Source of the DNA: a virus
Direction: 5' to 3' (one strand)
Virus record (IMG/VR): IMGVR_UViG_3300028490_000395
Length of the DNA: 64,000 nt
The notes under the pieces are model-generated. The model saw nothing but the letters and a program-made list of their open reading frames with translations. It did no database searches and was not told the DNA's origin. This document shows, one piece after another, positions 29,740 through 61,528 of this stretch. The position numbers and the translations under genes are program-made. The first letter of the stretch is position 1. Each line of letters begins with the position of its first letter.

Positions 29740-29748
29740 GGATAAGAA

Positions 29749-32283
29749 ATGAGTAAAAAGCCAAAAATAGACTTTGAGAAATACAAAGAGATATTCCAAC
29801 AAATAATTCACGACGTAGGCGCAGAAGGGGGAACTATAAATTTAGCTGAAGCAGCGATTAATAGTATGATCCTTTATTCTGCATCTGTAGTAGTCGGGAG
29901 AGCGTTGCCTGACCTTAGAGATGGCCTTAAACCAGCTCATAGAAGGCTTCTTTATGCAATGAAGTATTTAGGGATATCTCATTCTGGTGCGTTTAAGAAG
30001 TCAGCAAGGATTACAGGTACAACGATTGGTTTGTATCACCCTCACGGAGACAAGTCGGCGTATGACACAATGGTAGGTATGTCTCAAGAGTGGAAGTTAA
30101 ACTGTCCTCTTGTAGATGGACAAGGTAATTTTGGATCTATAGATGGAGACAATCCTGCTGATCAACGTTATACAGAGTCGAGAATGACAAAATTTGGGTC
30201 TCTTCTTTTTAGAGATTTAGATAAGAATGTTGTTGATTTTAGACCAAATTATGACGGAGAAGAAACTGAGCCTTCAGTACTACCGTCACCTTATCCAAAT
30301 ATCATTATCAATGGGGTTCTCCCAGGTAGTATTGCCGTTGGTATGGCTTCAATTATTTTGCCGCATAATCCGATAGAGGTTATGGATGTTGTAGAACTAA
30401 TGCTTAAGAACAAAAGATCTAACAAGAAAACCTCAGCTGAAGATATTCTAGCGCTAATGCCAGGGCCAGACTTTCCTACCGGTGGCTTCGTGTATGGAAC
30501 TGATAAATCTATGTTGAACATTATAAAGACAGGTAAGGGTAAGGTTCGAATGAGAGCGAAACACCATATTGAAAAGCAGTCTAGAGGTAGAAGCTCAATA
30601 ATCGTTACAGAGATTCCTTGGATGCGTAAAAAAAGTGATTTGATTCAAGATATCGTAACGCTAAAGAAAAATGCTTCAAAAGATGACAGAATGGCAGGGG
30701 CAATCACTAATATTCTAGATAATTCTGACCATGAAATAAGAGTCGTTATAGATATAAAGGCTGGATATGATCCAGAAATGATTTGGAGTTACATCCTTCA
30801 TAATACAAATTTTGATTGTTCAATAACTAGTTCTGCAGTTGTTATCGATCAAGAAATGAACCTAGATGAAGACATGGCTCCGACACCAAAAGAGTATGGG
30901 TTACAAGAGATCTTAGATAAATATTTAGATCACAGGATAACAGTAGTTTTTAGAAAATATTCTGATATTTTGAGTAAGACTTTAGCAAGAAAGCATATTG
31001 TTCAAGGTCTACTAAAAGCGATTGATATCATTGACTCTATAATTAAAATTATAAGATCGGCGAAGTCAGAAGATAATGCGTTTAAAGATATTAGAGCATT
31101 AGGGTTCTCTAAGCTTCAAACAAAAGCGATTCTAAATATTAGACTAGCAAAACTTCTAAATTTAGAGAAGTTGTCTTTGGAAAAAGAGCATACTGAACTA
31201 GACGTTGTTTCTGATAATGCTAATGAGATAGTATCTGATAAGAAAAAACAAATTAGAGAGCTATTAAAAGAGTTTAAAGAGATCAAAAAAACAATTGGTC
31301 ATGAAAGACGTTCTGTAATTGACAACAGTATGTCAGAGTTTGACGTAATTGAGGCAGCAATACCTGAAGAAGACATGGTTGTGTATATTACAGATAAGAA
31401 TTATGTGAAGAGAGTTGTCTCTAGTGATCTAGGAAAGAAAAAAGGGGAATTGATTCTACAAGATGGGGACTCTATAAAAAAGATCTTCAAAGTTAAGTCA
31501 ACTCAGCACATTCTTTTTGTATCTGAAAAAGGTCAAGTTTTTGGGAAAAAGATAGTTGAACTACCAGATTCTTCAACAGGTAACTATATTGAAAATATTG
31601 TCGAGCTTAGTAGTGGTGATAGAATAATTGATTTCTTAATAATTGACAACTTCAATAAAGAAGAAGTATTGGTTCTATTGAGTAGTGACGGAATGATTAA
31701 GAAGAGTTCTTTAGATCAATATAAAGGTGCGTTACGTACTCCGGGTATCACAGGTATCGGATTAAAAGAAGATGCTGTAGTCTTGAGTTCTGGTATCATA
31801 AAAGACTGTTCAGAGAACCAACCGGATGTTGTTATAGTTACAAAGGATGCTAAAGCTATTAGATTTAATTTAGAAAGTGTTAGCTGTATAGGTAGAGCAT
31901 CGAAAGGGGTTACAGGAATCAAAGCTAAAAAGGGAGATATCGTTGTTGGGATGATCATTCCTAAAAATGAGAAATACCTTCTAGCAACAATCACTAAGTC
32001 AGGGATGACAAAGGTCTCTCCAGTATCTTCTTTAAAAGAACAAAACAGAGCAGGCGTAGGCGTCATATGCATGGGGCTTACTAAAAGATCTGGAGAAATT
32101 GTGTCTGTATTAGGTTGGGCAAAAGAAGATTCACACGATCTTGTTGCAAAGATGGAGTCTGGAGAAACGATAGTTCTTGAGTCTAACTCAATTGAAGGCT
32201 CGGCAAAAAATACACGTGGTGCACAGCTATTCGATATAGCAGAAGACAACTCAATAATATCTGTTGAGTTATTTGACAAATAA
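29749..32283 (+). CDS. gyrA: type IIA topoisomerase DNA-cleavage subunit (GyrA/ParC-like)
   Basis: VVGRALPDLRDGLKPAHRRLLYAM, YHPHGD, and the active-site Tyr in DQRYTE. I found no QRRGGKG GyrA-box. Confidence 0.85.
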   Translation: MSKKPKIDFEKYKEIFQQIIHDVGAEGGTINLAEAAINSMILYSASVVVGRALPDLRDGLKPAHRRLLYAMKYLGISHSGAFKKSARITGTTIGLYHPHGDKSAYDTMVGMSQEWKLNCPLVDGQGNFGSIDGDNPADQRYTESRMTKFGSLLFRDLDKNVVDFRPNYDGEETEPSVLPSPYPNIIINGVLPGSIAVGMASIILPHNPIEVMDVVELMLKNKRSNKKTSAEDILALMPGPDFPTGGFVYGTDKSMLNIIKTGKGKVRMRAKHHIEKQSRGRSSIIVTEIPWMRKKSDLIQDIVTLKKNASKDDRMAGAITNILDNSDHEIRVVIDIKAGYDPEMIWSYILHNTNFDCSITSSAVVIDQEMNLDEDMAPTPKEYGLQEILDKYLDHRITVVFRKYSDILSKTLARKHIVQGLLKAIDIIDSIIKIIRSAKSEDNAFKDIRALGFSKLQTKAILNIRLAKLLNLEKLSLEKEHTELDVVSDNANEIVSDKKKQIRELLKEFKEIKKTIGHERRSVIDNSMSEFDVIEAAIPEEDMVVYITDKNYVKRVVSSDLGKKKGELILQDGDSIKKIFKVKSTQHILFVSEKGQVFGKKIVELPDSSTGNYIENIVELSSGDRIIDFLIIDNFNKEEVLVLLSSDGMIKKSSLDQYKGALRTPGITGIGLKEDAVVLSSGIIKDCSENQPDVVIVTKDAKAIRFNLESVSCIGRASKGVTGIKAKKGDIVVGMIIPKNEKYLLATITKSGMTKVSPVSSLKEQNRAGVGVICMGLTKRSGEIVSVLGWAKEDSHDLVAKMESGETIVLESNSIEGSAKNTRGAQLFDIAEDNSIISVELFDK

Positions 32284-34577: not shown

Positions 34578-35246
34578 ATGAGTTCAAAAATAGGTATTTT
34601 AGATTCAATATCAGAGAAAAATGATTCAACAACAAGGGCTAGAATTGCTGAGGTTTACAAATTAGTTGCGGCAAGCATTATGGCGTCAGTCGTCGGAGTG
34701 TTCGTGGGCCAAGAGTTAGTGTCGGTAATTCAACAGTATTTCATAGGATTTATAATCCTAGAATTTGCTTTGTTATTTGGGTTAATGTTTGCAAAAGAAA
34801 AAGTTCCTCTTAATTTAATTTTAATGTTTGGATTTACTTTTATGACGGGGCTAACAATGGCACCATTAATAGCAATGTATTTGTCGACAGAAGCCGGTGT
34901 CAACATTCTAAGTACAGCACTATTAGCTACAGGAGCTTCAGTGGGAGGATTAAGTCTTTATGCAATGAAAACAAAGAAAGACTTTACGGTCTATGGACAG
35001 ATATTGTTCGTTGCGCTAATAGCGCTGGTTGTTGTTGGCATAGCAAACATATTTATTCAAAGCTCATTTTTACATCTGGCTATGGCATATGTTGGGGCTA
35101 TTTTGTTTTCTATGTATTTGATAGTGGACACACAAAGACTTGTAAGAGGGATGTATAGCTCTCCTATAATAATGGCTGTAAACATATACTTAGATATTTT
35201 AAACCTCTTTCTAAGTATTTTATCTATACTTAGTAGCAGAAAATAA
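34578..35246 (+). CDS. Bax-inhibitor-1/YccA-family 7-TM protein
   Basis: Seven TM helices, about 222 aa, with an N-terminal cytoplasmic segment. Matches the YccA/BI-1 architecture. Confidence 0.55.
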   Translation: MSSKIGILDSISEKNDSTTRARIAEVYKLVAASIMASVVGVFVGQELVSVIQQYFIGFIILEFALLFGLMFAKEKVPLNLILMFGFTFMTGLTMAPLIAMYLSTEAGVNILSTALLATGASVGGLSLYAMKTKKDFTVYGQILFVALIALVVVGIANIFIQSSFLHLAMAYVGAILFSMYLIVDTQRLVRGMYSSPIIMAVNIYLDILNLFLSILSILSSRK

Positions 35247-35966: not shown

Positions 35967-37352
35967 ATGAAAATCTTAAAACCTCTACTCCTCACAACAA
36001 TATTAACTTTATCCTCGCAAGCAGCTTTTATAAAGGGCTCAGTAAATCAATGTAAAGCCTCTTATGTTGAGAATATAAAAAACAGATCAATTTACTCAGA
36101 AGATAAAAAGGTTTATACAAGAGGACTCCAACTAGGCAAGCTGGTGTCTTTCAAAAAAAGTGAGAAATTTACAGAGCAGGCTAGGTATCTATATTATAAG
36201 CCATATGATTCTCAAAAAGCCTTAGAATTCGTGTTGGAGTCTGAAAAGATTACATCGCTATATGGCATAGAAATCAGAAAGACCAACAAGAATGTTTACA
36301 ATCCATATTCATCTAAAGCTGAGAAGTTAAAAAGGTTTAATCTCTATACACGAGAATATAAAGTTTGGGAGGTCTTCCAAAGTACAGTTATTTTTGGGAA
36401 TAGCCAAGATTTAAACAGAGAAGTGAAATATCTTGTGGAAAGATTTAAAGATGAGAATAAAAAAATCTACAGCATGTTACTTGCTCCCACATATAAAAAT
36501 CTTCTTTTTTTAGAAAAGATAGAATATTTCAAGTCTAATAAAGGCAAAAGAATGTTTATGGAAGAGCTTGAGGAAAGTAGGATCAGTCAAGACGACCAGT
36601 CGTGGAAGCTACTTTATAAGATGTTTAAAGGTACTATTACAAAAGACGATATCACTGGCGGTCCAAAGAAAGCCTTGGCGTTCAAAAAGAAGATAGATCA
36701 AAGATTATCAAAATGCTATCAAAAAAACTTCATTATAAATGCAAAGAAAAAAGTATATTCTACTGAAAAGATAATTCAATGGTATGCAGCTTCCATTGCC
36801 TACCCAGAGAAGAAGAAAGATTTGCTTCAGCTCTATTACTCAATTACAACAAACACGAACTTGTGGCTTTACCTTGATTATGTTTATAACAAAGGGGAAG
36901 GTCATTACGCTCGGGCAGCAAGAAGTCTTGGGATAATGGTTGGACAAGAAAAAAGTCCTGAATACTTAACAAACAGCCTCGCAAAGATACTCTCAAAAGG
37001 GGCCCAAGAGAACTTGGAGAATAGAGAATATTACAAAGCTTGGACGATGTCTAAAAGATCTATTGGTGTATTGTTTAAGCTAAAAGAAGTTGGCCAAGCA
37101 GAAATCGATGAAATGGTAACGGTAAAGAGAGTCTTGAGAGATTCTGCACAGGTTTTAATAAATCATTTTGCTGAAAAAAATGACAAGGAAACAGCTGCCA
37201 ATATTTATAATGTTACAGATGACATTATCTTAACTGTCTACAAAAAAAGAGAATCAAAGAAAATAAAGAGATTGAAACAAAAGAAGCTTTCAAAAGAACC
37301 TACAAACGCAAGATACAAGAAGAGAAGTGATCACGCATATGACCTTAACTAA
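35967..37352 (+). CDS. secreted hypothetical protein
   Basis: Signal peptide MKILKPLLLTTILTLSSQAAF. Start at the ATG after GGAAGGA. Confidence 0.5.
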   Translation: MKILKPLLLTTILTLSSQAAFIKGSVNQCKASYVENIKNRSIYSEDKKVYTRGLQLGKLVSFKKSEKFTEQARYLYYKPYDSQKALEFVLESEKITSLYGIEIRKTNKNVYNPYSSKAEKLKRFNLYTREYKVWEVFQSTVIFGNSQDLNREVKYLVERFKDENKKIYSMLLAPTYKNLLFLEKIEYFKSNKGKRMFMEELEESRISQDDQSWKLLYKMFKGTITKDDITGGPKKALAFKKKIDQRLSKCYQKNFIINAKKKVYSTEKIIQWYAASIAYPEKKKDLLQLYYSITTNTNLWLYLDYVYNKGEGHYARAARSLGIMVGQEKSPEYLTNSLAKILSKGAQENLENREYYKAWTMSKRSIGVLFKLKEVGQAEIDEMVTVKRVLRDSAQVLINHFAEKNDKETAANIYNVTDDIILTVYKKRESKKIKRLKQKKLSKEPTNARYKKRSDHAYDLN

Positions 37353-38286
37353 GTTATTGAAGGGTCTAGAAAAGGGAGTTGTATATATTATCTCCTTTAA
37401 AATAGACTTTGATATTTCAAAAATAGAGTTCAGGAAAGATGATCTCGGTAAGCCTTCTGTTATAGAATATATTGGGACGCATATTTATAAGAAATCTGAA
37501 TTAACTGCAGAGACCTTTAATTCCTATAAATGTTATTTCAATAAAGATAAAAAATGTTTTAAAGAGCAAAAGAGACGTATACAAAATATGATAAATGGAT
37601 CGTATTACAATGGTGAACTTTTAGTTACAAAAGAAAGAGTTTTATGGCTAAAATCATTACTAAAGAAAAAGAACTGGATTGAGATTAAGAAAACGGTAAA
37701 CAGAAAAAATTTCAATTCAAACCTTGAAAGAAAGCTAAAGCTTCAGTTACTAAATTTCCTTGGTCAAACAAATGGGTCCATGGTATCAGAGTTTACGCAT
37801 AATAATCTAAAAACCAGGGCGGACATGGTTGTTTTTGGAGAAGGAGAGGTTCATGTATATGAGCTTAAAAGTAAGAATGACAAATTATCGAGACTCCGGA
37901 ATCAAATAAAAGACTATTCTAGGTATGCGGACTTCATAACAATTGTTATAAACAAAAAGCACTGGGAACAGGCGAAGAAAATGATTTCTATGGACATTGG
38001 TGTTATCCTTGAAAAAAATGGGGTATTGGAGCGCAAGAGACCGGCTAAAAAGATAGAAAGTATAAATAGATCTTTTCTATTGTGGAAAGATGAGGTTGTT
38101 CAATTTAGGAAATCTGATAACTTTCAAAAGTTGACTCTAGAAGATCAGAATAAACTAGTAGCTATAATTCTGGAAAGCAGATTTAAAGACTGCAGTCAAG
38201 AAGTAGATAAAAACCCTCTTGCAATATTCAAAAACAGAATCTTAAAACCTGGATCAAAGACATCTTTAAAATACACTACTCAATAG
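37339..38286 (+). CDS. hypothetical protein with candidate PD-(D/E)xK nuclease motif
   Basis: ADMVVFGEGEVHVYELKSK gives a D...ExK arrangement. Overlaps the previous gene by 14 nt. Confidence 0.4.
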   Translation: MTLTKLLKGLEKGVVYIISFKIDFDISKIEFRKDDLGKPSVIEYIGTHIYKKSELTAETFNSYKCYFNKDKKCFKEQKRRIQNMINGSYYNGELLVTKERVLWLKSLLKKKNWIEIKKTVNRKNFNSNLERKLKLQLLNFLGQTNGSMVSEFTHNNLKTRADMVVFGEGEVHVYELKSKNDKLSRLRNQIKDYSRYADFITIVINKKHWEQAKKMISMDIGVILEKNGVLERKRPAKKIESINRSFLLWKDEVVQFRKSDNFQKLTLEDQNKLVAIILESRFKDCSQEVDKNPLAIFKNRILKPGSKTSLKYTTQ

Positions 38287-38497: not shown

Positions 38498-39523
38498 ATG
38501 TATAATACCTTAAGAGAAAGTTTGGCTATAAAAATAGCAGGGAAAGATGAAAGTCTTAGTTCAGAAGAACAAAATTTATTGAAGGGAGAACTCAAGTTAG
38601 CTTACTTAAAATTGTTAAGCTCAAAAATAATGATTTTTATAATGATATTTTTAGAGCTCGTATTCTTCTTATATATTGGGTATAGAGTGACAGTCGGTAT
38701 GAGTAATGCTGGTCTGTTAGATTCTGCACCGAGTAAGCCACATGTTGCAGTATTGGCTCTAGATAAGCCGATAACAGACAATTACGCAGACAAGTTTATT
38801 TCAAAACTAATAGAGATAAACAATGACAAAAATGTAAAAGCTATTGTGATAAAGTTAAGGTCTCCAGGCGGGACTCCGGCAGCGTCATGGAATATAGCTG
38901 ACACCTTTAAATCTTTACAAGAAAAGAATGGTGACAAAAAGCCTATTTTCTTATATGTTGACTCTATGGCAGCAAGTGGGTCATATATGATCGCGTCACA
39001 ATCAAATTACATTTATGCAAATAGATTTGCCGTAGTTGGTTCAATTGGTGTGATCATGCAACATATGGTATTTGAAGGCTTTGCTAAGAAAGTTGGGATT
39101 GGAGAGGAAACGCTAACAGCTGGAGAATATAAGAAAGTATTCTCAACGTTCTCTTATATGAATGAGAAACAGAAGGATCGAGTTCAAAAGGAAATTTTAG
39201 ATGTTATGTATGAAGGGTTCCTTGAAGTTGTTGAGAGAGGTAGAAATCTTGATCGAAAGAAATTAAACGAGTATGCAGAAGGTCGAATATTTATAGCTAA
39301 TGATAAAAAGGTTGAGGGTGTTTTAGTCGACCAAGTTATAGATTGGACTAAATTCAAAGTTCTTGTAACAAAGAAGCTTGAAAAGAAAGATGACTTCTTA
39401 TTTAGCCGATACAACCTACAAGAGAAAAAATCTTTTGGATCTGCGCTATTAGGTTCTTCTTTAGATCTTAATGTAGATATCAAAAATCTAAAAACAAATT
39501 CAACAATGGAGTTATTAAAATGA
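38498..39523 (+). CDS. sppA: S49-family serine peptidase (SppA / ClpP-like)
   Basis: N-terminal TM followed by IVIKLRSPGGTPAAS...DSMAASGSYMIAS...VVGSIGV. Confidence 0.7.
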   Translation: MYNTLRESLAIKIAGKDESLSSEEQNLLKGELKLAYLKLLSSKIMIFIMIFLELVFFLYIGYRVTVGMSNAGLLDSAPSKPHVAVLALDKPITDNYADKFISKLIEINNDKNVKAIVIKLRSPGGTPAASWNIADTFKSLQEKNGDKKPIFLYVDSMAASGSYMIASQSNYIYANRFAVVGSIGVIMQHMVFEGFAKKVGIGEETLTAGEYKKVFSTFSYMNEKQKDRVQKEILDVMYEGFLEVVERGRNLDRKKLNEYAEGRIFIANDKKVEGVLVDQVIDWTKFKVLVTKKLEKKDDFLFSRYNLQEKKSFGSALLGSSLDLNVDIKNLKTNSTMELLK

Positions 39524-40269
39524 GAGTAGCATTAATCAACTATGAAGACAAAGAGATCGCGAGTAAGTTGGCCATTAAAGAAGAGTATAAGAATTGTATT
39601 TTTTTCGATGAACTAGAAGGTTTAGATAACTCGAGTTACTATATTGATATTAGAATGTATGATCTTGTTTTTATAAACATTTCAAATGAGGACAAGATTG
39701 ATAAGAAAATATTCAATATATTTAAGACCTTGGCCGATGACTATGAAAATTATCAAATTGTGCTTACTCATAACAAAGACATTAGTAAGAACAAACTTGA
39801 GACTTTAACAACTGCGATAAATACGATCTACAAAAAAATCAAACCAAACTTATCTTTCCTAGAACTCCCAGATCGTGAAATAATAGGAAGCTTTTCTAAA
39901 AGTATAGGAAGCTATTTTACATCGATCCCGCTAAAAGAAGTGTCTTCTATAAACTACAAAGAAAGAGAGTTAACGATTACCACTCATATGGAAAAAGAAG
40001 TTGTGATCAAAATCACAAAAGATATTGACTTCCAGGTGATTCTGTATTTTATTAGACATTATAATCAGATAATCAATATCGATACAATTCTTTCAGGGAT
40101 CTCTCAAGAACCTGAGCTAATGAACAACTCACCTATCGAAACCTCCTTCTCCTCTATTCGTAAAACCTTTTCAAAACTAAACATAAACCCAATCAAAGCA
40201 TTTAAGCGTGTAGGGTTCCAAATAACGTTCTCAGAGCCTGTTCTAGCTAAGAAACGTACAAAGGCTTAA
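39520..40269 (+). CDS. hypothetical protein, possible winged-helix regulator
   Basis: The C-terminal region loosely resembles an OmpR-type effector domain. This is a weak call. Confidence 0.3.
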   Translation: MRVALINYEDKEIASKLAIKEEYKNCIFFDELEGLDNSSYYIDIRMYDLVFINISNEDKIDKKIFNIFKTLADDYENYQIVLTHNKDISKNKLETLTTAINTIYKKIKPNLSFLELPDREIIGSFSKSIGSYFTSIPLKEVSSINYKERELTITTHMEKEVVIKITKDIDFQVILYFIRHYNQIINIDTILSGISQEPELMNNSPIETSFSSIRKTFSKLNINPIKAFKRVGFQITFSEPVLAKKRTKA

Positions 40270-40355
40270 ATCAAGACTATTTTGCCTTGTAGTCGCTCTC
40301 TCATAAATTGATCTCTTAAAAAAAGTAAGTCCGGGCATAAGCCGCGGGCTAAGAT

Positions 40356-40559
40356 TTAAATACAGGGGTGAATATTTCTCGAAAGAGGAATGTTACCTTT
40401 ATGTATTACACCATTATCTCCAAAAAGAGCAATGCCTTCATTAGAAGATGCATGAGTTTTCATGTATGTTCTAAATCCTTCATCTTTATTTTTGAAAAAT
40501 TCTTCTTTCATAACCTTTACACGTTTACCAAGTTTTTGATAAATAAGTACAGCGGTCAT
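40356..40559 (-). CDS. small hypothetical protein (last gene of minus-strand operon)
   Basis: 4-nt overlap with the upstream gene. Confidence 0.4.
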   Translation of the reverse strand: MTAVLIYQKLGKRVKVMKEEFFKNKDEGFRTYMKTHASSNEGIALFGDNGVIHKGNIPLSRNIHPCI

Positions 40560-40957
40560 AATAGCTCCTTTCTAACTTCTTCATTAATGCGTTCCATAAT
40601 GAGCTCAATAGCATTGAGAACATGGTGTGCACGAGTCTTAGATACAGTTTTTCGATAACGCTTAAAACCTAGAATAGTCTTAGCTGCAGTTTTCGTTAAA
40701 ACAATATATCCGGCCACAGATGGGCTTAGATACTCATAATGTTTACGTCCGTCAAATTTAGACAATAAAGTCATATCTTTGAGAACATAAAAAGGGACTG
40801 TAATAAGATGATCAGAATTTTGTTCTGCTCGATCTTTTTTGAATTCAAAATTAATTGAATTTGAAGTGCCAGTGTTTAAAGACAATCCTTTGATTGCGCT
40901 AAAAATAAGAACACCTGCTTCTTTTTCTTGTTTAAGAAAATCTTTTACTTTTACCAT
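40556..40957 (-). CDS. hypothetical protein
   Basis: Operon member. Confidence 0.45.
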   Translation of the reverse strand: MVKVKDFLKQEKEAGVLIFSAIKGLSLNTGTSNSINFEFKKDRAEQNSDHLITVPFYVLKDMTLLSKFDGRKHYEYLSPSVAGYIVLTKTAAKTILGFKRYRKTVSKTRAHHVLNAIELIMERINEEVRKELL

Positions 40958-40971
40958 TTTATTCTCCTTGT

Positions 40972-41196
40972 TTACGACGTAGATTCATAGTCCCATTCAA
41001 CACGAGTGTCATAGTTACCATCTGGTCGTTTTGTAAATATCGTTCTGCGAACACCACAAATTGTACTAAATGTCTGCTTTCCATAAATTGAATCGCTATC
41101 ATTTTCGTGTGTATCTTCAGAAACCTCAATTGTTGCTTTTTTTACAACCTTAATACCTTTACCAGAAAACTGATAATTCTTTGCGTTTTGGATCAT
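40972..41196 (-). CDS. small hypothetical protein
   Basis: Operon member. Confidence 0.4.
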   Translation of the reverse strand: MIQNAKNYQFSGKGIKVVKKATIEVSEDTHENDSDSIYGKQTFSTICGVRRTIFTKRPDGNYDTRVEWDYESTS

Positions 41197-41209
41197 TTTA
41201 AATGTCCTC

Positions 41210-41569
41210 CTATTTTAAATCTTGTACAAAAAGATCACCACCAAATTTACGTTGAAGAGAGTAAAGAAACCTTAGATTATCTAAGTTGACTTCATTGACT
41301 TTCTTCAAGCCCAATATTTTTAGTTCACCCTGAATTAAGCGATAAACTTCTGCTTGGTTTGCTTTAAATGCTGTTACAAATTTTGCCTTTTTATTTTCAT
41401 CTGATTTTAAATCGTCAGATAAATCTATATAAAGAATGTCGTTAACAATTACAATAGGCTTAATATTAGCCAGTATGCGCTTGATCAACTTATCCTTAAC
41501 CTTGTCTTGAATAGAATCGTACAGAATCTTATCTGGTATTTTTATCCAAGTTTGTTTTAATTTATCCAT
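41210..41569 (-). CDS. hypothetical protein
   Basis: Operon member. Confidence 0.45.
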   Translation of the reverse strand: MDKLKQTWIKIPDKILYDSIQDKVKDKLIKRILANIKPIVIVNDILYIDLSDDLKSDENKKAKFVTAFKANQAEVYRLIQGELKILGLKKVNEVNLDNLRFLYSLQRKFGGDLFVQDLK

Positions 41570-41578
41570 AATAATACC

Positions 41579-42154
41579 TTAAGAAAGGATCTCGGAAACT
41601 TGCTTAAGAATTGATTCCTCATCTTCTTCTGCGTTAACAAAATAGACTGGAACAGATCCCAAGTTTAAACCGATTACATTAAAATCGTATTCGCCTTCAT
41701 CGTCTTCGATCATAAATCGACGAGCAATATTTTCTTGCGAATCACCTCTTAATATCATTCGATGTTTACGAATATCCCGTGAAGCTAAAAATACAATTAG
41801 CTTAGTTGTTAGTCCTTGTGAATTAGCTGCTTTCAATAAGTCAGAAACATATCCAGCTGAAATAACAGACAAGATATTATGAGAACTTTTAAAGCTATTT
41901 TCTGCACTTGTTTTACCAGCAGAACTTCGACCAAGAAATCCAACAATCGGAATATCTTTATTTAGTTGTTTTAATTCATAAACGGGTACACCATATCTAC
42001 CAATAACACTTCCTGCAATAGAAGGTGTAGTAGCGAAAGATGCAGCCATTTCGGTTGAATCAAAAGTAGCATCGTCAACAAAGTAATAGTGAACACCATT
42101 AACTTCGCCAGGACGAGGAGGACGGGTAGTCATTGAAACTAGTTCATTACTCAT
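41579..42154 (-). CDS. guanylate-kinase homolog lacking the N-terminal P-loop
   Basis: MSNELVSMTTRPPRPGEVNGVHYYFV is the GMP-binding motif, located 6 residues from the start. Colinear with Gmk through LRGDSQENIARRF. No GxxGxGKS at the N-terminus. ATG at 42154 follows AAGGAG. Confidence 0.7.
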   Translation of the reverse strand: MSNELVSMTTRPPRPGEVNGVHYYFVDDATFDSTEMAASFATTPSIAGSVIGRYGVPVYELKQLNKDIPIVGFLGRSSAGKTSAENSFKSSHNILSVISAGYVSDLLKAANSQGLTTKLIVFLASRDIRKHRMILRGDSQENIARRFMIEDDEGEYDFNVIGLNLGSVPVYFVNAEEDEESILKQVSEILS

Positions 42155-43283
42155 CTTCAGCTCCTTCTTCAACTTCTTGAATAGAGATCGTAGTTCGAAT
42201 AACCTCTTTAAAAGGAATTTCGAAATCAGACTCTAGTTTTGCAGCAACTTCTTCATTGAATTTTAATTCCATGAAAGGAGCGTATTCTGCAAAAGCACCG
42301 ACTTCAAGGATTTTGTCCATGATTTCAGCTTTCTTAACTTTACGAGTCTTTAATTGGAAAGAAGAAGAAGTTTTAGCAACTGCACCATACTTACCATCTA
42401 AAAATGGAAGAAGAGCAGTAACTTCACCGACACCAGGCTTGCCATCTTTTTCAAGGACAAGTTGAGCAGCAGCTTTAACTTCTTTTTCATAATGTTTAGC
42501 TAACTCTTTAGCCCAAATAGAAGCTTTAAGTTTATGACGAAGACTTCCAATGTATTTACGACCGTCACATTGTGCGATGTATTTACAGTGTTGACAATGT
42601 GAACCGGGATTAAATTCTGGTGAGAACTCATCTTCCATATCACGCTTGTAACGCTTAAGTAGCTTTACAACGTCAGGTTGAATATCTTCGAGTGAATCGA
42701 TAGAGAAAACTTTTGGAAAACGTTTACCATTTCTTAGACCGAGTCTAATAAAGATAACCGGTAGACCATATTTCTTGTAAGCAGCAAGTGCATAAAGAAT
42801 AGCTTCAGCATCGACTTCCATTTTAATGTTGTAACCAGTTTTCCATTCATAAATTACTGTGTATGGAATACCTTTGATTTCTCGATATGTAGTTAAGTCG
42901 TTTTTAACGATTAAGTTAAAATCTTCTGAGACTTCAGGGAAGGAGACTGTATACTTTTCTTCAATACCAATCAAACTTTGATCAGCAAGAAGCTCTTTAA
43001 AGTTAACGTGATCACGAATTTCTTCATTAACCTCGTAAACAACTTCAAGAGGGAAGTTTTCAGTTGTTGGCTCATAAGAACCTTGTAAAATATCAGATGC
43101 AGCGGATGCAGCGATATCATGACCTAAAATACCAATGTCAAGTAAACGACTGTGGTCGCTAGTTTTGTCAGTATCTCGTAAGTGTTTGTAAGTTCTAAGT
43201 GGACAGTCTTCATACTGTGTGATTAAAGTCTTACTTGCCGTGTTAATTTGCTTGCGTTGTGCAGCGACGTCTAAAAAATCCAT
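42147..43283 (-). CDS. RecB/Cas4-like PD-(D/E)xK nuclease with 4-Cys (Fe-S) module
   Basis: VIYEWKTG (ExKT), AILYALAAY (QhxxY-like), an N-terminal Cys (YEDCPL), and C-terminal CQHCKYIAQC. ATG at 43283 follows AAGGGGA. Confidence 0.65.
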   Translation of the reverse strand: MDFLDVAAQRKQINTASKTLITQYEDCPLRTYKHLRDTDKTSDHSRLLDIGILGHDIAASAASDILQGSYEPTTENFPLEVVYEVNEEIRDHVNFKELLADQSLIGIEEKYTVSFPEVSEDFNLIVKNDLTTYREIKGIPYTVIYEWKTGYNIKMEVDAEAILYALAAYKKYGLPVIFIRLGLRNGKRFPKVFSIDSLEDIQPDVVKLLKRYKRDMEDEFSPEFNPGSHCQHCKYIAQCDGRKYIGSLRHKLKASIWAKELAKHYEKEVKAAAQLVLEKDGKPGVGEVTALLPFLDGKYGAVAKTSSSFQLKTRKVKKAEIMDKILEVGAFAEYAPFMELKFNEEVAAKLESDFEIPFKEVIRTTISIQEVEEGAEDE

Positions 43284-43424
43284 AGGATCCCCTTTTAAAT
43301 TTAAAATATAGTCATTTTCATAGAAAATGCTTACTAAGTAATATGTACAAGTCCTCGTTAAATACAACATTAATATTATATCTCACAAAAACTTAAACAC
43401 AGATAATTATTGTTAACTAAATAG

Positions 43425-43446
43425 CTAAAGAAAAGCCAAAAGGCTT
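43425..43446 (-). terminator. terminator hairpin AAGCC-TTTT-GGCTT + TTCTTT (minus strand)
   Basis: Same 20-mer as the ligA terminator. Lies downstream of 43454..43702 (-). Confidence 0.55.
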
Positions 43447-43453
43447 ATCTAAA

Positions 43454-43702
43454 TTAAACGAAAATCCACTCTGTGTTAAATTTACGTTTGGTATCTCTAA
43501 AAAACTTGTTTAAAGTTTTTCTAACATTTTGATTAATTGGATCTTGGTATGAAAAAATCAAAGTAACTTTGCCAGGGACAAGGTCACGATTGATTTCATA
43601 TGACATGTTAATCTCTAAGAGATGTGTTGAAGAACACAGTTTAGTGTTCAGGAAGGGAATGATTTCTGAAGTAAGTTCTTCAAATTGAAGTGCTTTGGAC
43701 AT
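43454..43702 (-). CDS. small hypothetical protein
   Basis: ORF with AAGGAG-like upstream sequence. Confidence 0.45.
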   Translation of the reverse strand: MSKALQFEELTSEIIPFLNTKLCSSTHLLEINMSYEINRDLVPGKVTLIFSYQDPINQNVRKTLNKFFRDTKRKFNTEWIFV

Positions 43703-43828
43703 AGAAACTCCTTAGTTAAATTGGTTTGAGTTCGTTATAGTAGCTTATTATAGAAAAAGAGAGGGTTAAAGCTAATTTTTATCTTTTATAACATATAATT
43801 CGTTTATGAATAAATCAAAGGAGATTTT

Positions 43829-44326
43829 TTGAACTCAACATATTTAACAATCGACGGGAAAGATTGCCAAGTCGATCAATTGTCAAAAGTAGAAGAAAGA
43901 TTAGAGAAAGGATATTCTTTAAGCTTGTCTTTAAATGACTCTTTTTTCAGATCAGGGGTACCTAATACATTTCAAGAGATGTACCCGAAGGTTTGGCTTG
44001 AGATAAGTAAGGCCTTATTCATGAGCGGGGTAAAGAGGGTCAACCTCCCTTTTTCTGTAATAGTTGCGGAAAGAGCATCGCACAAGTTCAAGAAAGTTCC
44101 AGTGAGAACAGCTAAGGTTCTTATAAATGAAAAACATGCTGATCCAGATTCTGTTTCTGAAAAAACACTAGGTGGCATAAAAACAAAAACAGCTATCTTC
44201 AACATATCTGAAGGTGACTTCATTCAAATTCAAACAAAAATCAATAGCATATTAAAGGAAGAAGCTTATAATGTGATATCAATACCTGGCATAGGGTTAT
44301 GTTTTAAAAGATATTCTTTTCTTTAA
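43829..44326 (+). CDS. hypothetical protein (TTG start)
   Basis: AAGGAG lies 7 nt upstream of the TTG. Confidence 0.45.
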   Translation: MNSTYLTIDGKDCQVDQLSKVEERLEKGYSLSLSLNDSFFRSGVPNTFQEMYPKVWLEISKALFMSGVKRVNLPFSVIVAERASHKFKKVPVRTAKVLINEKHADPDSVSEKTLGGIKTKTAIFNISEGDFIQIQTKINSILKEEAYNVISIPGIGLCFKRYSFL

Positions 44327-44727: not shown

Positions 44728-44804
44728 GCGGGTATAGCTCAGTTGGCTAGAGCGTCAGCCTTCCAAGCTGAATGTCGAGGGTTCGAGTCCCTTTGCCCGC
44801 TCCA
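44728..44804 (+). tRNA. tRNA-Gly (anticodon UCC)
   Basis: Cloverleaf folds. Anticodon arm tcagc-CTTCCAA-gctga. Acceptor gcgggta/tgcccgc, discriminator U, and CCA encoded. Confidence 0.85.
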
Positions 44805-44810
44805 AGAAAT

Positions 44811-44885
44811 GCGGAAGTAGCTCAGTGGTAGAGCATAACCTTGCCAAGGTTGAGGTCGCGAGTTCGAGTCTCGTTTTCCGCTCCA
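44811..44885 (+). tRNA. tRNA-Gly (anticodon GCC)
   Basis: Anticodon arm taacc-TTGCCAA-ggttg. CCA encoded. Confidence 0.85.
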
Positions 44886-44902
44886 TGTAAAAAAAAGAAA
44901 AT

Positions 44903-44975
44903 GCGGGTATAGCTCAGTTGGTTAGAGCACTGGACATTTGTCCGCCGGTCAAGGGTTCGAGTCCTTTTGCCCGCT
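44903..44975 (+). tRNA. tRNA-like paralog with aberrant anticodon arm (pseudo-tRNA?)
   Basis: Acceptor, D arm and T arm are near-identical to tRNA-Gly(UCC) at 44728. The anticodon region ctggacatttgtccgcc folds only as a 5-bp stem with a 4-nt loop (AUUU). No CCA. Confidence 0.5.
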
Positions 44976-45000
44976 CAAATATTAGATAAAGGAGATTACA

Positions 45001-45315
45001 GTGAAAAATCTTGATCAGAAGTTCTTAGTTAACACAGAAGACACAGGGAGATTCATTGTGATCTCAAAGCGCACAGGCAGGAAATATTTTGTCGAAGCAA
45101 TAGGCGACCCTCATATTCAATGGGGATCAGTAGATGCCGCAAGTGGTAAGCTAAACACGAAGAAAGGATGGAAGAGATTTAGAGGATCAATTGATAAAGA
45201 GGATAGCCTCATTACAAAAGATTCTTTTGATAAAATCCATTCTTTAACTCCAGGGGAAAGCCCTCTTGTTTATATTGATAAACTTGACGCTAAGTATCCA
45301 ACCTTAGCTAGATAA
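45001..45315 (+). CDS. hypothetical protein embedded in tRNA cluster
   Basis: AAGGAG lies 6 nt upstream of the GTG start. 104 aa. Confidence 0.5.
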   Translation: MKNLDQKFLVNTEDTGRFIVISKRTGRKYFVEAIGDPHIQWGSVDAASGKLNTKKGWKRFRGSIDKEDSLITKDSFDKIHSLTPGESPLVYIDKLDAKYPTLAR

Positions 45316-45362
45316 ATCTAGGCTTCGGCCTAGGTGGTTTAAATCCCACTAAAAAAGCACAT

Positions 45363-45439
45363 GTCTGCGTAGCTCAGTTGGTAAGAGCGATCGGCTCATA
45401 TCCGATAGGTCACAGGTTCAATCCCTGTCGTAGATACCA
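45363..45439 (+). tRNA. tRNA-Met or tRNA-Ile2 (anticodon CAU)
   Basis: Anticodon arm atcgg-CTCATAT-ccgat. Acceptor has two G.U pairs. CCA encoded. Confidence 0.8.
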
Positions 45440-45448
45440 AGTAAAAAT

Positions 45449-45526
45449 GCGGGTGTAACTCAGTTGGTTTAGAGTGTCATCCTTCCAAGTTGAAAGTCGC
45501 GAGTTCGAGTCTCGTCACCCGCTCCA
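45449..45526 (+). tRNA. second tRNA-Gly(UCC)-like paralog with U.U mismatch in anticodon stem
   Basis: Anticodon arm tcatc-CTTCCAA-gttga. Acceptor gcgggtg/cacccgc. CCA encoded. Confidence 0.65.
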
Positions 45527-45542
45527 GAATGCAATGTCACAT

Positions 45543-45620
45543 AGGTCTATAGCTCCAACTGGCTAGAGCAGGGGATTCCAAATCCTCAGGTTAAGAGTTC
45601 GAATCTCTTTAGGCCTGCCA
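45543..45620 (+). tRNA. tRNA-Trp (anticodon CCA)
   Basis: Anticodon arm gggga-TTCCAAA-tcctc. Acceptor aggtcta/taggcct. CCA encoded. Confidence 0.8.
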
Positions 45621-48613: not shown

Positions 48614-48768
48614 AAAAACCTCATAATTTTAATATAGAGTCATTTTAACATATAAAAAGAAAACTTCATATTTCTTTTAGGATTGCTTTGATATACTTTC
48701 TTTATTAATCAAGAAGATACCTATAACAATAAACGCATTTTATGCTTATTTACACGAAGGAGTTACTT

Positions 48769-51700
48769 ATGATTTTCATATCAGACCTAAGTATTTCAGA
48801 AAGCGCACTAACAGTTACACAAGCTGTTGAACTTGCTGAAAGCTTAAATATTAAACAAATGGTAATTGCAGACTCAAACTTGAGTGGAGCTTTGCCATTT
48901 TATTACGCTGCAAAAAAAGCTGGTATTAAACCAATTTTTGGCGTTCGTCATTGGTTCGATAGTGTTGAATATTTATTCATTGCTAAAGATTCAATTAGTT
49001 ATAAAAAGTTGCTCTTTTGGGAGTCAAAAGGTTATACAGAAGATGCATTCTTAACAGAAGGCATTCTAACTATAGCAATTAACACTAAAACAGCTAATCC
49101 TGTTTTCAAGTCAAAACTATCTATTCTTAAGAAAGAGATTTCTGAGATTGATAAAATGATCAATGAAGACTTGTCAACGCTAGACGTTATTGACACGAAT
49201 ATAATGAATGCCAAAGAAGAAGGCGACTTCTTTAAAATTGGACTTATTAAAGCTATAAAAGAGACCTCATCTTTAAAAAAAGAAGTTGCCTCTAATAACA
49301 TCTCAGCTACTTATGAATATAAAGAATCAACTAAACTTGATTCAATTATGAGTAGCTGTAAAAATGATTACAAATTTGGTAATCCTAATCCTCCAACTTT
49401 TAAATTTAGAGTTGAAGTTGGTGAAGAGTATGGTTTAACTAATGCAACTGACAAATCTTTATTTGAAACGTTGTGTAAGCTAGGTTTAGAAAAAAGACTT
49501 GAAAAAGTTGATAAAAAACTACACCACCTGTATTATGCTCGCCTAAACAAAGAGATGAATGTTATTGATAACATGGGCTTCCCAGGTTATTTTCTTATTG
49601 TTTGGGATTTTGTAAACTATGCAATTAAAATGGAAATTCCAGTCGGTCCAGGTCGTGGTTCTGCTGCAGGTTCTATTGTTGCATGGGTTTTAGGTATTAC
49701 AAACTTAGATCCAATCAAGTATCATTTACTTTTTGAGAGATTTCTAAATCCTGAACGTGTCAGTCTTCCTGATATCGATCAAGATTTTTGTCAAACTCGT
49801 CGTCAAGAAGTTATTGACTATGTTATTGAACGATATGGTGTTGAAAATGTTGCTCAAGTAATTACATTTGGTAAATTTGGAGCAAAAGGTTCAACCGTAG
49901 ATGTCACTAGAGTATTAGAGTTACCACAATACATTGGTGAAAACATATCTAAACGAATTCCTGATCTTACAAACTTCAAGAAAGCTTACGCCGGTGCCAA
50001 AGACTCGTGGGATGAATATCTTTCAAAAGATTTTTATTCTTCTCTTGTTTGGGATCATAGTCGGACAATTGAAGGTTATACTCGAGGAACTGGTATTCAT
50101 GCAGCTGGATTAGTTATTAAAGATGACGAAATCTATAATCATGCGCCAGTTTATCGATCTGAAAAAGATGGAGAAGGAGCTTATTTGATCGGATACGATG
50201 GAAAATATCTTGAAGATGTTGACCTAGTTAAATTCGATTTCCTTGGACTAAAAACGTTATCTGTTATCGATGCTGCAGCTAGAGCTGTTTTTAAGAATCA
50301 TGCTATCAAACTTGATATTATGAACTTAGATCCAATAGATGCTAAAGTGTATGAGTACATTGAGTCTGGAAATACAATTGGAATGTTCCAAATTGAATCT
50401 CCAGGCATGCAAGACTTATCTAAGAAATTAAAGCCTGAAGACTTTGAAGACTTAATTGCACAGCTTGCGTTATATAGACCAGGACCAATGCAGGCAGGAA
50501 TGCTTGACAGTTTTGTTGCTAGAAAAAATGGTAAAGAAAAAATTGACTATTTCTTTAAAGAGATGGAAGAAAAGCTTAAGCCAATTCTAGCTCCAACTTA
50601 TGGAATGATTGTCTATCAAGAACAAGTTATGCAAATCGTTCAAGAAATTGGAGGATTTTCACTTGGTCGTGCCGATTTAGTTCGTAGAGCTATGGGTAAG
50701 AAAGATCCAGATGAAATGAAAAGGTTAGCCTTGGAATTTGCAGATGGAGCTTCTGCTATCGGCTTTAAGAAAGACAATGCAATCGACCTATTCGGGCTTA
50801 TTGAAAAATTTGCTGGATATGGATTTAATAAATCACACTCTGCTGCTTATGCTGCGGTAACTTATATTACAGCTTGGCTGAAATTATATTACCCTAATGA
50901 GTTTATGGCAGCCTTAATTAATTCTGAGGCTAAGGATAGAGAAAAGCAAACGAAATATATTCGTGAAGCTAAAGACATGAAGTTACAAATGGATACTCCA
51001 AATGTATTTATTGCGACACCTACATTTGAGGCGACTAAATCTGGAATAACTTTCAGTGCAAGTTCAATTAAAGGTCTTGGTGAAACAGCTGTAACTTATT
51101 TTCTTTCTCAATTCAAAAAGATAGATAAAGACGATGATTTCAAATCAGTCATAAAACTATTAAATAAGATTCAGATCTCTCCTAAACTTAGATTTGAAAA
51201 TTATGAAAAGTTTATAAACAAAGCAACTCGTACGTCAAATTCACTTTCTAAAAAGATTGAGGAAAAAGACGAGCAAATTCACAAACTAAATGTGAAAGCT
51301 AGAGAGAAAGGTTTAACTGATAAAGAAGGAGAACGTCTACAACGTTATTATGTTGTATTAGCTGAGTTAAATTCAGATAAAGAAAAAACAGATCTAGACC
51401 TCGTCAAAGACAATCTTGACAAATTGGTTCGTCTTCAATCTGATTTCGAGTCATGGAAAGAGTCTAAAGACAGTTTTATAAAGATCCAGAATGCGATGTT
51501 CGAGTCTTTCGCAAAAATTGGAGGCTTAAGTAGTTTTGGGATTCCTAGAAAAGTATTAGTTGAAAATACATCTAAGATTTTATCTGGCTCATGCCCTGAA
51601 GACATAGATTTAACAGGAGATGAGTATTCTAAAGCTGAGATAATTTCACTTGAACAAGATCTTTGCGGAGATTCATTTTCAAGTCCTTTTACAGATCAGC

Positions 51701-52092
51701 AATTAGCAGCCATTAAGCAAGTAAACATTGCTGAAATGAATGTTGGTATGCTTCTTTCTAAAGTTGAGAAAACTAAGAAAGATGGTGGTAAATATTTAAT
51801 CGTGTCTTTTTTAGATGCTGATAATAATATAACTTCCGGATCTGACTTTAACAATAAGGCAAATGTCATAAATGAAGGAGAAATAGTTAAATTCAAGATT
51901 TCTAAGAAAGGTCAGTATTCTAACCTAACTTATATTGATCGAATTGATTTAGATGCCTTTATTCGTGCACAGAAGCCTGCTGACGTTGCAGTAACAGTTG
52001 ATCAAGACATTTCGTCTATGGTTATACCAGATGGTGCAGATATCGTTGTAAAAGATTCAAAAGGAAATATTGTTGCGAGAATAGCTCGTTAA
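48769..52092 (+). CDS. dnaE: DNA polymerase III alpha subunit (DnaE-type C-family polymerase) with degenerate PHP domain
   Basis: NMGFPGYFLIVWDF...VGPGRGSAAGS...LLFERFLNPERVSLPDIDQDF...GYGFNKSHSAAYA. The N-terminus is FISDLSISES where HxHxxDYS is expected. ATG at 48769 follows GAAGGAG. Confidence 0.9.
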   Translation: MIFISDLSISESALTVTQAVELAESLNIKQMVIADSNLSGALPFYYAAKKAGIKPIFGVRHWFDSVEYLFIAKDSISYKKLLFWESKGYTEDAFLTEGILTIAINTKTANPVFKSKLSILKKEISEIDKMINEDLSTLDVIDTNIMNAKEEGDFFKIGLIKAIKETSSLKKEVASNNISATYEYKESTKLDSIMSSCKNDYKFGNPNPPTFKFRVEVGEEYGLTNATDKSLFETLCKLGLEKRLEKVDKKLHHLYYARLNKEMNVIDNMGFPGYFLIVWDFVNYAIKMEIPVGPGRGSAAGSIVAWVLGITNLDPIKYHLLFERFLNPERVSLPDIDQDFCQTRRQEVIDYVIERYGVENVAQVITFGKFGAKGSTVDVTRVLELPQYIGENISKRIPDLTNFKKAYAGAKDSWDEYLSKDFYSSLVWDHSRTIEGYTRGTGIHAAGLVIKDDEIYNHAPVYRSEKDGEGAYLIGYDGKYLEDVDLVKFDFLGLKTLSVIDAAARAVFKNHAIKLDIMNLDPIDAKVYEYIESGNTIGMFQIESPGMQDLSKKLKPEDFEDLIAQLALYRPGPMQAGMLDSFVARKNGKEKIDYFFKEMEEKLKPILAPTYGMIVYQEQVMQIVQEIGGFSLGRADLVRRAMGKKDPDEMKRLALEFADGASAIGFKKDNAIDLFGLIEKFAGYGFNKSHSAAYAAVTYITAWLKLYYPNEFMAALINSEAKDREKQTKYIREAKDMKLQMDTPNVFIATPTFEATKSGITFSASSIKGLGETAVTYFLSQFKKIDKDDDFKSVIKLLNKIQISPKLRFENYEKFINKATRTSNSLSKKIEEKDEQIHKLNVKAREKGLTDKEGERLQRYYVVLAELNSDKEKTDLDLVKDNLDKLVRLQSDFESWKESKDSFIKIQNAMFESFAKIGGLSSFGIPRKVLVENTSKILSGSCPEDIDLTGDEYSKAEIISLEQDLCGDSFSSPFTDQQLAAIKQVNIAEMNVGMLLSKVEKTKKDGGKYLIVSFLDADNNITSGSDFNNKANVINEGEIVKFKISKKGQYSNLTYIDRIDLDAFIRAQKPADVAVTVDQDISSMVIPDGADIVVKDSKGNIVARIAR

Positions 52093-60982: not shown

Positions 60983-61528
60983 ATGTCTAACAAAAGAGTA
61001 ATTATAATTACTGGACCTTCAGGTTCTGGTAAAAGTGAGTTAGAAAAGAACTTAGTTGAAAACGGTTTCGGAGAAAAAGCTGTGTCTACAACAACAAGAC
61101 CTCTTCGCACTGGAGAAGTTGAAGGCGTTCATTACCACACTGTTTCAAAAGCGAACTTTATCAACATAGTTAAATCTAAAGGTTTTGTTGAGCACGTACA
61201 ATTCAACGGAAATGATTATGGTATTGAAAAACGATACTTACCTACGTACGCTGTTTTAGTTGTTGAAGATAATGGTAAAACTCAAATTGAAGAAAACTGT
61301 GAAAACGTTATCTCAATTGGCTTATCTGCATCTCCAGCTGTTCTCAAAGATCGAATGCTTAATGCACGCGGTGATTCTGAAGAAGATGTTATCGAAAGAA
61401 TCAAGAATGACTCTATCCTAGAAGGTATGAAAAAGTTGTCTTTTGATATTAGTATCAATACAGATGGCTTTACACTTGACGAAGTTTCAGAACTTGTTAA
61501 GTATGAGCTTAATAGGATTATGTCATGA
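60983..61528 (+). CDS. gmk: guanylate kinase (canonical, with P-loop)
   Basis: GPSGSGKS P-loop and TTRPLRTGEVEGVHYH GMP-binding motif. Confidence 0.85.
   Translation: MSNKRVIIITGPSGSGKSELEKNLVENGFGEKAVSTTTRPLRTGEVEGVHYHTVSKANFINIVKSKGFVEHVQFNGNDYGIEKRYLPTYAVLVVEDNGKTQIEENCENVISIGLSASPAVLKDRMLNARGDSEEDVIERIKNDSILEGMKKLSFDISINTDGFTLDEVSELVKYELNRIMS

Follow-up and report, generated by a model that had tools for sequence, protein, structure and literature searches.

In phage T7, the gp3 and gp6 nucleases are accompanied by the gp1.7 kinase. Phage T4 breaks down host DNA with its own nucleases, and its own deoxynucleoside monophosphate (dNMP) kinase is needed for the reuse of the products (PMC6071114). 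The genes of these T4 and T7 salvage pairs do not form one translationally coupled cassette. Here, we describe a locus that appears to differ in this respect, and for which we infer a functional coupling as well. It is located at positions 40356-43283 of a 64,000-nt stretch of DNA, the IMG/VR virus record IMGVR_UViG_3300028490_000395 (the window), and consists of six minus-strand open reading frames (ORFs), beginning with a Cas4-like nuclease gene that is followed directly by the gene of a guanylate kinase (GK) with a rearranged order of segments. The logic of the salvage that we propose for this cassette is the same as for T4 denA/denB, gp46/47 and the gp1 dNMP kinase, while the proteins are not homologous.

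Several other described systems resemble parts of the locus. The nuclease is like the Cas4/RecB-family 4Fe-4S nucleases (PF12705; phrog_69) in its one N-terminal cysteine plus C-x2-C-x5-C arrangement, the D...(D/E)xK core and the ExxxY motif, but differs by a 133-aa C-terminal domain with an acidic tail and by the kinase gene that always comes next in ten lineages. The kinase shares the GMP lobe, the Walker-A motif, the LID arginines and the predicted fold with guanylate kinase (Gmk, PF00625), but its P-loop module stands after the GMP lobe and not before it. GKs have already been annotated in cultured phages (phrog_1815; Staphylococcus phage SA2, Bacillus phage Tsamsa), where they have the canonical order and lie beside thymidylate synthase or MazG genes with no nuclease adjacent. 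P-loop NTPases with reordered motifs are known from the YlqF/YawG circularly permuted GTPases (cpGTPases), which are true circular permutations (G4-G5-G1-G2-G3), ancient, widespread and functional. These cpGTPases are the nearest analogy to the kinase described here, in which, however, the swap is non-circular, recent and confined to one small clade. Finally, RecE/RecT and lambda Exo/Bet modules likewise place an exonuclease gene first in a short, mobile-element-borne operon whose other products are small proteins, but here the invariant partner is a kinase.

The six ORFs encode, in the order of transcription, the nuclease (42147-43283, 378 aa), the GK-family (d)NMP kinase (41579-42154, 191 aa), the small alpha/beta protein p119 (41210-41569), the lineage-specific p74 (40972-41196), p133 (40556-40957), a shortened member of a family of ~200-aa proteins, and p67 (40356-40559), which is again lineage-specific. 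The same six minus-strand ORFs were recovered on the source contig by an independent gene caller, in agreement with the initial annotation. The gaps between them are -8, +9, +13, +14 and -4 nt, with the kinase start overlapping the nuclease stop by 8 nt and p67 overlapping the stop of p133 by 4 nt. The tight packing reported previously therefore stands, but a gap of -26 nt given with it does not; this figure arises if TTG 42172 is taken as the kinase start, while ATG 42154, which is preceded by a suitably spaced AAGGAG motif and agrees with the starts of the orthologues, gives -8 nt. Good Shine-Dalgarno motifs precede five of the six starts (p119 has AAGG only), and the coding asymmetry of GC content, higher at first than at third codon positions (GC1 > GC3), is found in all six ORFs. 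For the nuclease, the start at 43283 is backed by 18 homologues, all of which begin with M-x-F, and by the AAAGGGGA motif. The public gene call P0001, a 407-aa nuclease starting at 43370, was rejected as 29 codons too early; its extension (43284-43370) is not conserved. The six ORFs form a tightly packed unit and are probably co-transcribed, and we hold this anatomy of the cassette to be very well established.

The kinase had been taken for a degenerate GK without a P-loop, which turned out to be incorrect. Pfam PF00625 matches it with 32.1 bits (cut-off 25.2) over residues 6-52 only, which align with the GMP-binding lobe at positions 34-80 of the profile; against the NCBIfam equivalog TIGR03263 it reaches 43 bits (cut-off 160). 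The non-canonical place of the P-loop module explains why Pfam recognised no more than the GMP lobe, and the low model scores likewise result from the order of the segments and not from decay. The Walker-A motif GRSSAGKT is present at residues 75-82, in the stretch IVGFLGRSSAGKTSAENSF (residues 70-88). It belongs to a relocated beta1-P-loop-alpha1 module, IPIVGFLGRSSAGKTSAENSFKSSH (residues 68-92; 41879-41953, minus strand), that is positioned between the GMP-binding lobe, which is now N-terminal (residues 5-62; 41969-42142, minus strand), and the core strand ILSVIS. A profile of the orthologues, canonical and permuted together, matches solved GKs at 1e-20.

The comparison with orthologues from related loci (L numbers) and with individual proteins (P numbers) separates two groups. 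In the canonical lineages L004, L005, L008, L009, L012, L018, L019 and L020, the P-loop LGRSASGKT is found at residues 9-12 and the S-x-TTR motif at 35-38; in the permuted group, made up of the window protein, L001, P0022 and P0068, the P-loop is at residues 75-78 and the S-x-TTR motif at 9-11. The canonical orthologues have a gap at the site of the relocated module, and the permuted proteins are without the N-terminal module but have a homologous one of 25 residues at that site. The alignment thus indicates that the beta1-P-loop-alpha1 module was excised at the N-terminus and put back in behind the GMP-binding lobe, and the segment order, read from these positions, is B-A-C instead of A-B-C, which is a swap of adjacent segments and not a circular permutation. 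The relocated module appears to come from the same gene lineage because its unusual signature, GRSASGKT, is common to the canonical orthologues. Invariant residues of the GMP lobe are S7, T9, R11, R14, E17, Y23, Y54 and G55, and the GMP-site residues together with the LID arginines R132, R136 and R146 do not vary among the orthologues, whether canonical or permuted. The four permuted proteins (48-53% identity to the window protein for the others) keep F73, L74, G75, R76, S77, G80, K81 and T82 in addition to these GMP-site residues and LID arginines. The constancy of catalytic residues across four divergent permuted sequences argues for continued selection on catalysis.

An exhaustive HMMER search with the kinase over 1.84 billion (1.84e9) cluster representatives gave, among the 150 best matches listed, only the window protein and P0068 as collinear over the full length with the permuted kinase; all other relatives among these 150 matched in two to three separate stretches or partially. 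The clade has 25-35% identity to cellular GKs. We also noticed four GK-like proteins distinct from the permuted form (P0174, P0141, P0212 and P0196), which start directly at the GMP lobe and lack a Walker-A motif over their whole length; these may be genuinely P-loop-less GK-like proteins or truncated gene calls. A confident AlphaFold2 model of the kinase, built on a 16-sequence alignment (pLDDT, the predicted local distance difference test, 88.9; pTM, the predicted template modelling score, 0.84), contains a strand at 70-75, a helix at 81-88 and a strand at 93-97, and the predicted fold is that of an ordinary GK. The rewired topology is plausible in view of the known GK fold, in which the helix after the GMP lobe would end beside the start of beta1, with alpha1 returning to the following strand as an ordinary beta-alpha-beta crossover. 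In the literature, we found no report of a permuted guanylate kinase, of a non-circular P-loop permutation in a nucleoside monophosphate (NMP) kinase, or of a Cas4-GK pair.

The first gene encodes a predicted Cas4/RecB-type four-cysteine PD-(D/E)xK nuclease, for which Fe-S binding and nuclease activity would be expected. It matches Pfam PDDEXK_1 (PF12705) with 32.8 bits (cut-off 22, E 9e-8) over residues 17-240, phrog_69 'exonuclease' at 4e-10 and, at the level of the domain, the Cas4 models of PADLOC (best 2e-6). In an alignment of 19 sequences with 39-65% identity (A2), the core (residues 1-245) has C27, H55, E108, D129, K148, D158, E160 and Y164 as invariant or nearly invariant positions, with D129 nearly and D158, E160 and Y164 fully invariant. 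Position 146 is occupied by E or D, with W or F and then the invariant K148 after it (E146-W-K148 in the window protein). The Cas4/AddB-type cysteine arrangement proposed in the initial annotation, including the CQHCKYIAQC stretch, is borne out by the invariance of C27 and of C230-x2-C233-x5-C239 in the same alignment. The C-terminal extension, estimated there at ~120 aa, exists as well and is a highly conserved domain of 133 aa (residues 246-378; 42150-42548, minus strand), which comprises the basic helix KLKASIWAKELAKHYEKEVK, a portion rich in beta structure and the acidic tail EVEEGAEDE; its invariant positions in A2 include K251, K253, W257, K259, K263, P293, F294 and G300. Nothing credible was found for this domain in Pfam or PHROGs at E<=1, and the nuclease profile had no match to Protein Data Bank (PDB) sequences at E<=10. 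A CRISPR Cas4 proper and a CRISPR association were rejected: the CRISPR Cas4 equivalog TIGR00372 yields 18.2 bits against a cut-off of 65, the window is free of array-like repeats, and none of the genes called up to 10 kb to each side of the nuclease gene is a cas gene.

Relatives of the nuclease are few, 20 in 5.8 billion clustered proteins, and all of them are metagenomic. A blastn search with 40000-44000 and a tblastn search with the nuclease against 50,697 phage records (INPHARED) returned nothing, and a scan of IMG/VR and of the GTDB representative genomes with the nuclease alignment gave pattern matches only, none of which was confirmed. We inspected the linkage in ten distinct lineages, including the window's own element, with nuclease identity down to 39%. 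In all ten, the nuclease, the kinase and a ~110-aa protein follow each other in this order on one strand, with gaps of -17 to +9 nt within the trio and of -14 to +2 nt between nuclease and kinase. An absence of co-occurrence in other genomes, which would have spoken against a functional association, is thus not what we observed. The nuclease stop and the kinase start overlap in eight of the ten lineages, over the 39-65% divergence range, and are spaced by +1 and +2 nt in the other two. These overlapping stop and start codons indicate that the kinase is translationally coupled to the nuclease. The idea of a six-gene operon, therefore, needs to be narrowed: a packed unit of six genes is present in the window, but across the lineages, judged by gene order, the conserved unit is the trio of nuclease, kinase and p119, with the p133 family as a loosely attached fourth member and p74 and p67 without homologues in the related loci. 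The lineages include contigs of 589 kb (GCA_043956585.1, JBINOH010000921.1) and 215 kb, and the window's own element is represented by contigs of 233 and 255 kb (ERZ27262695, k141_827129).

One of the canonical lineages, L008, has a second GK paralogue of 186 aa and canonical order (L008:2397-3729, minus strand), which overlaps by 14 nt with the start of an RNase_T/DnaQ-type exonuclease gene. By its gene arrangement, this second pair is an independent exonuclease-kinase pairing in an element that also bears the Cas4-like trio.

None of the four small proteins had been given a placeable motif, which still holds for p74 and p67, whereas p119 and p133 turned out to belong to conserved families tied to the cassette. 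The small proteins have no family match in Pfam, PHROGs or NCBIfam, and in PADLOC the five proteins other than the nuclease gave nothing at E < 0.01. The product of the third gene, p119, represents a conserved ~110-aa family. Its profile had only chance-level matches when compared by sequence with solved structures; its structural matches are weak, and the fold is not like that of a single-strand annealing protein (SSAP). The assignment of p133 to the ~200-aa family (alignment A9) is based on an hhalign probability of 90% (E 1.6e-6), on an hmmsearch of the window ORFs with this family in which p133 was the sole match (E 4e-7), on tblastn (5e-4) and on the shared motif GY-VLTK...F-(F/Y)-R. In L004, L005, L009 and L012 the ~200-aa family is encoded immediately upstream of the nuclease, whereas p133 is encoded downstream of it in the window. 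For the ~200-aa family and the third proteins, nothing credible was found in Pfam and PHROGs at E<=1. Both p74 and p67 show a coding GC pattern and a Shine-Dalgarno motif (TAGGAGG and AAAGGAG, respectively), and p74 is probably a real gene; tblastn detected no homologue of either in the related loci, including L001, the closest relative examined. We also considered whether p82, encoded upstream of the cassette (43454-43702, minus strand), could be the split-off N-terminus of the ~200-aa family, as a 22-residue blastp match (1e-3) might suggest, and rejected this on an hhalign probability of 0.06%.

Signals flanking the cassette were sought with promoter and terminator scans of the region, in which nothing rose above chance. 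Between p82 and the nuclease, where the initial annotation placed a terminator at 43425-43446, a consensus scan finds a small hairpin with a 5-bp stem, AAGCC-TTTT-GGCTT, and a T-rich tail (43433-43446, minus strand), 8 nt past the stop of p82. The hairpin is possibly a terminator separating p82 from the cassette, but sites of this kind are not more frequent than by chance (two terminator-like sites in the region against 2.4 expected from shuffles). No hairpin had been noticed downstream of the last gene, yet a weak one followed by a run of seven T lies directly past it (about 40318-40350, minus strand); this could possibly be a terminator shared with the convergent gene on the other strand, although its folding energy (z -0.25) is no better than that of shuffled sequences. 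A perfect TATAAT hexamer, seen on reading the sequence at 43375-43380 (minus strand), ~90 nt upstream of the nuclease ATG, has no recognisable -35 element and was not called by the sigma-70 scan; it is a candidate -10 element only.

The genes closest to the cassette are, in part, shared with L001. Between the cassette and a tRNA cluster lie p82 and p165 (43829-44326, plus strand), which have no family assignment and are 41% and 36% identical, respectively, to their L001 counterparts. Convergent with the cassette is a gene for a 249-aa protein (39520-40269, plus strand; 46% identity in L001), whose start overlaps the stop of an S49 peptidase gene by 4 nt. Among the related loci, p82, p165 and this convergent gene are common to L001 only. 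The C-terminus of the 249-aa protein has a weak similarity to OmpR/PhoB-type winged helices (Trans_reg_C 0.008; an NCBIfam response-regulator model 1e-4, far below its cut-off). The tRNA cluster comprises six genes (44728-45620), Gly-TCC, Gly-GCC, Met, Gly-TCC, Trp and one without an anticodon. The latter, at 44903-44976, received no anticodon from ARAGORN but is scored as a tRNA by Rfam (48 bits). The cluster contains a 104-aa ORF (45001-45315), and its first two Gly tRNAs form an 81-nt tandem duplication.

Further out, the window encodes a helicase (1-1686), an NAD-dependent ligase (24726-26771), GyrB and GyrA (27496-32283), a Pol III alpha subunit (48742-52092), a bacterial-type single-stranded DNA-binding protein (SSB; 56186-56770) with an OB-fold N-terminus and a DnaQ-like exonuclease (61525-62250), and the related loci add RecJ, RecG-like/DEAD helicases, an HD protein, Phg_2220_C, T5orf172 and an M15 peptidase. 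These genes mark the surroundings of the cassette as a region of replication and DNA metabolism. The uncultivated replicon to which it belongs is very large, with a size of at least 233-255 kb, and low in GC (~33%). The SSB has a long Q/P-rich linker made of imperfect tandem repeats (56504-56733) and the C-terminal tip DEDEIPF. Judged by this tip, the element has an SSB interaction hub of its own; the acidic tail of the Cas4-like nuclease is a different one. Many ORFs of the window are without a family. One of the few phage-flavoured matches in the window is a 319-aa protein (37327-38286) directly upstream of the S49 peptidase, with phrog_984 at 2e-19 and, in the precomputed Pfam results for a 315-aa call, PF26915 Phage_P4_cII. 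Among 30 further window ORFs scanned, none encodes a capsid, portal or terminase protein. Cell-like genes, an unusual phage cargo, are found at 10513-11664, 12499-13461, 17782-20215, 22151-23881, 34578-35246 and 38498-39523; they include genes for a FadL/TodX-like outer-membrane protein, an NAD synthase, a Na+/H+ exchanger, an MscS-like channel, a flotillin/SPFH and a BI-1/YccA-like protein, and a further one encodes the S49 peptidase, which has an N-terminal transmembrane helix. A huge phage is the most likely and most economical reading of the replicon; another type of giant element is possible.

For the function of the cassette, we tentatively favour nucleotide salvage by degradation and rephosphorylation, a reading that we consider possible but by no means assured. 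According to this proposal, the nuclease would degrade or resect host DNA, or the ends of replication or recombination intermediates, and release 5'-mononucleotides; the kinase, produced in step with the nuclease, would turn (d)GMP and possibly other dNMPs into the diphosphate, and the cellular nucleoside diphosphate kinase would return the diphosphates to the deoxynucleoside triphosphate pool from which the Pol III-type replisome of the element itself is supplied. p119 and p133 may act as adaptors or regulators, which is purely our conjecture. We base the salvage reading on the invariant nuclease-kinase pairing, on the second exonuclease-kinase pair in L008 and on the precedent of T4. Several points weigh against it. 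Nuclease and kinase are linked by genomic evidence only, and characterised Cas4-type nucleases are mostly engaged in end-processing or recombination and not in the bulk degradation of DNA. A GMP-specific kinase would recycle one of the four nucleotides, in a genome of ~33% GC. The GKs of cultured phages have no adjacent nuclease, so a GK can serve a phage alone. The phage context itself is weakened by a window that has no capsid or terminase gene while FadL, MscS, a Na+/H+ exchanger, flotillin and BI-1 are encoded. Finally, the C-terminal domain, p119 and p133 may have roles that differ from anything that the known parts predict.

The main rival is a module for recombination, replication restart or end-processing, in which the nuclease resects ends, p119, p133 and the C-terminal domain act in DNA binding, as loaders or as adaptors, and the kinase is a co-expressed passenger; we regard this as somewhat unlikely. 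Cas4/RecB is a family of end-processing enzymes, to which the PDDEXK_1 and Cas4 matches assign the nuclease, RecJ, RecG/DEAD helicases and an HD protein adjoin in the related loci, the region of the window is a replication module with its own SSB, and the conserved acidic tail of the nuclease is of the kind seen on many proteins that handle single-stranded DNA. However, the overlap of stop and start codons, kept in eight of ten lineages, exceeds what would be expected for a passenger gene, and the second exonuclease-kinase pair in L008 and the weak structural matches of p119 also stand against this module. Moreover, no SSAP, RecA-like or Gam-like partner was recognised with Pfam, PHROGs and NCBIfam; specifically, none of p119, p74, p133, p67, p82 and the ~200-aa family matched an SSAP (RecT, Erf, Rad52-like, Sak4) in these collections, which assigned the proteins to no RecE/RecT-type or other characterised module either. 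The earlier impression that the locus is neither a standard recombination module nor a nameable defence module is thereby supported. A named defence system was likewise rejected, as PADLOC (PADLOC-DB v2) shows the shared Cas4 domain in the nuclease only and nothing credible for the other five proteins.

Counter-defence is a less likely explanation, and one that we consider improbable: the kinase would sustain (d)GDP/(d)GTP when the host Gmk is shut down or nucleotides are depleted, and the nuclease and small proteins would hit host components. In some bacteria, (p)ppGpp targets the guanylate kinase of the host, and defences that deplete nucleotides exist. The small, fast-evolving and lineage-specific p74 and p67 in the operon would fit, being common for anti-defence loci, as would the wide occurrence of GKs in cultured phages with no obvious need for them, but no defence or anti-defence family is matched beyond the Cas4 domain, and the locus lies in a replication module and not in a variable early region. 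Slightly more doubtful still is a catalytically dead, MAGUK-like kinase that serves as a scaffold, a phospho-ligand or protein-binding subunit of the nuclease. The restriction of the Pfam and NCBIfam matches to the GMP lobe, the deficit of the equivalog score (43 vs 160 bits), the MAGUK GK domains among the PDB matches of the orthologue profile and the existence of GK-like representatives without any P-loop, such as P0174, could all be read in this way; the complete Walker-A motif, invariant in all four permuted sequences, and the invariant LID arginines and GMP-site residues speak for an enzyme instead, the more so as the order of segments explains the low scores and the proteins encoded in this slot by the canonical lineages are ordinary GKs. 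Least likely of all, and highly improbable, is a pathway for a modified guanine nucleotide, with a kinase that phosphorylates a non-canonical dGMP analogue for incorporation and a nuclease that discriminates against unmodified DNA or destroys it. Modified-base phages pair specific nucleases with specific dNMP kinases, as in T4, and the kinase clade is divergent from cellular GKs and tightly linked to the nuclease, but its GMP-contacting residues are canonical, and neither the window nor the related loci showed base-modification enzymes, be they for deazaguanine synthesis, PurZ-like or transferases. A more far-reaching reading, which we judge unlikely, is that one new physical machine is made up of the nuclease, the kinase in its permuted form, p119 and the p133 family, either a degradosome-to-kinase channel or a counter-defence device. 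If this were true, a Cas4-type Fe-S exonuclease would pass 5'-(d)GMP directly to a dedicated kinase, the relocation of the P-loop would be an adaptation that changes the surface of the kinase so that it can dock onto the unique C-terminal domain of its partner nuclease, and the kinase would be the first natural non-circular NMP kinase permutation shown to be active.

Each domain of the cassette is familiar by itself, and the function that we propose would be no surprise. New are a P-loop module that is permuted non-circularly within an NMP kinase, the Cas4-like subfamily with its unique C-terminal domain and, in a clade of giant uncultivated elements, the invariant grouping of p119 with the nuclease and the kinase. 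Profile hidden Markov models that see the GMP lobe only invite the false call of a degenerate, P-loop-less kinase, including by automated pipelines. The permutation, with canonical orthologues present in the same genomic slot, offers a clean system for studying how far P-loop enzymes tolerate a rewired topology, and it also bears on the origin of such permutations, by duplication and deletion or by insertion. The invariant trio is characteristic of a clade whose contigs measure 215-589 kb, and it points to a dedicated function in nucleotide recycling or DNA processing.

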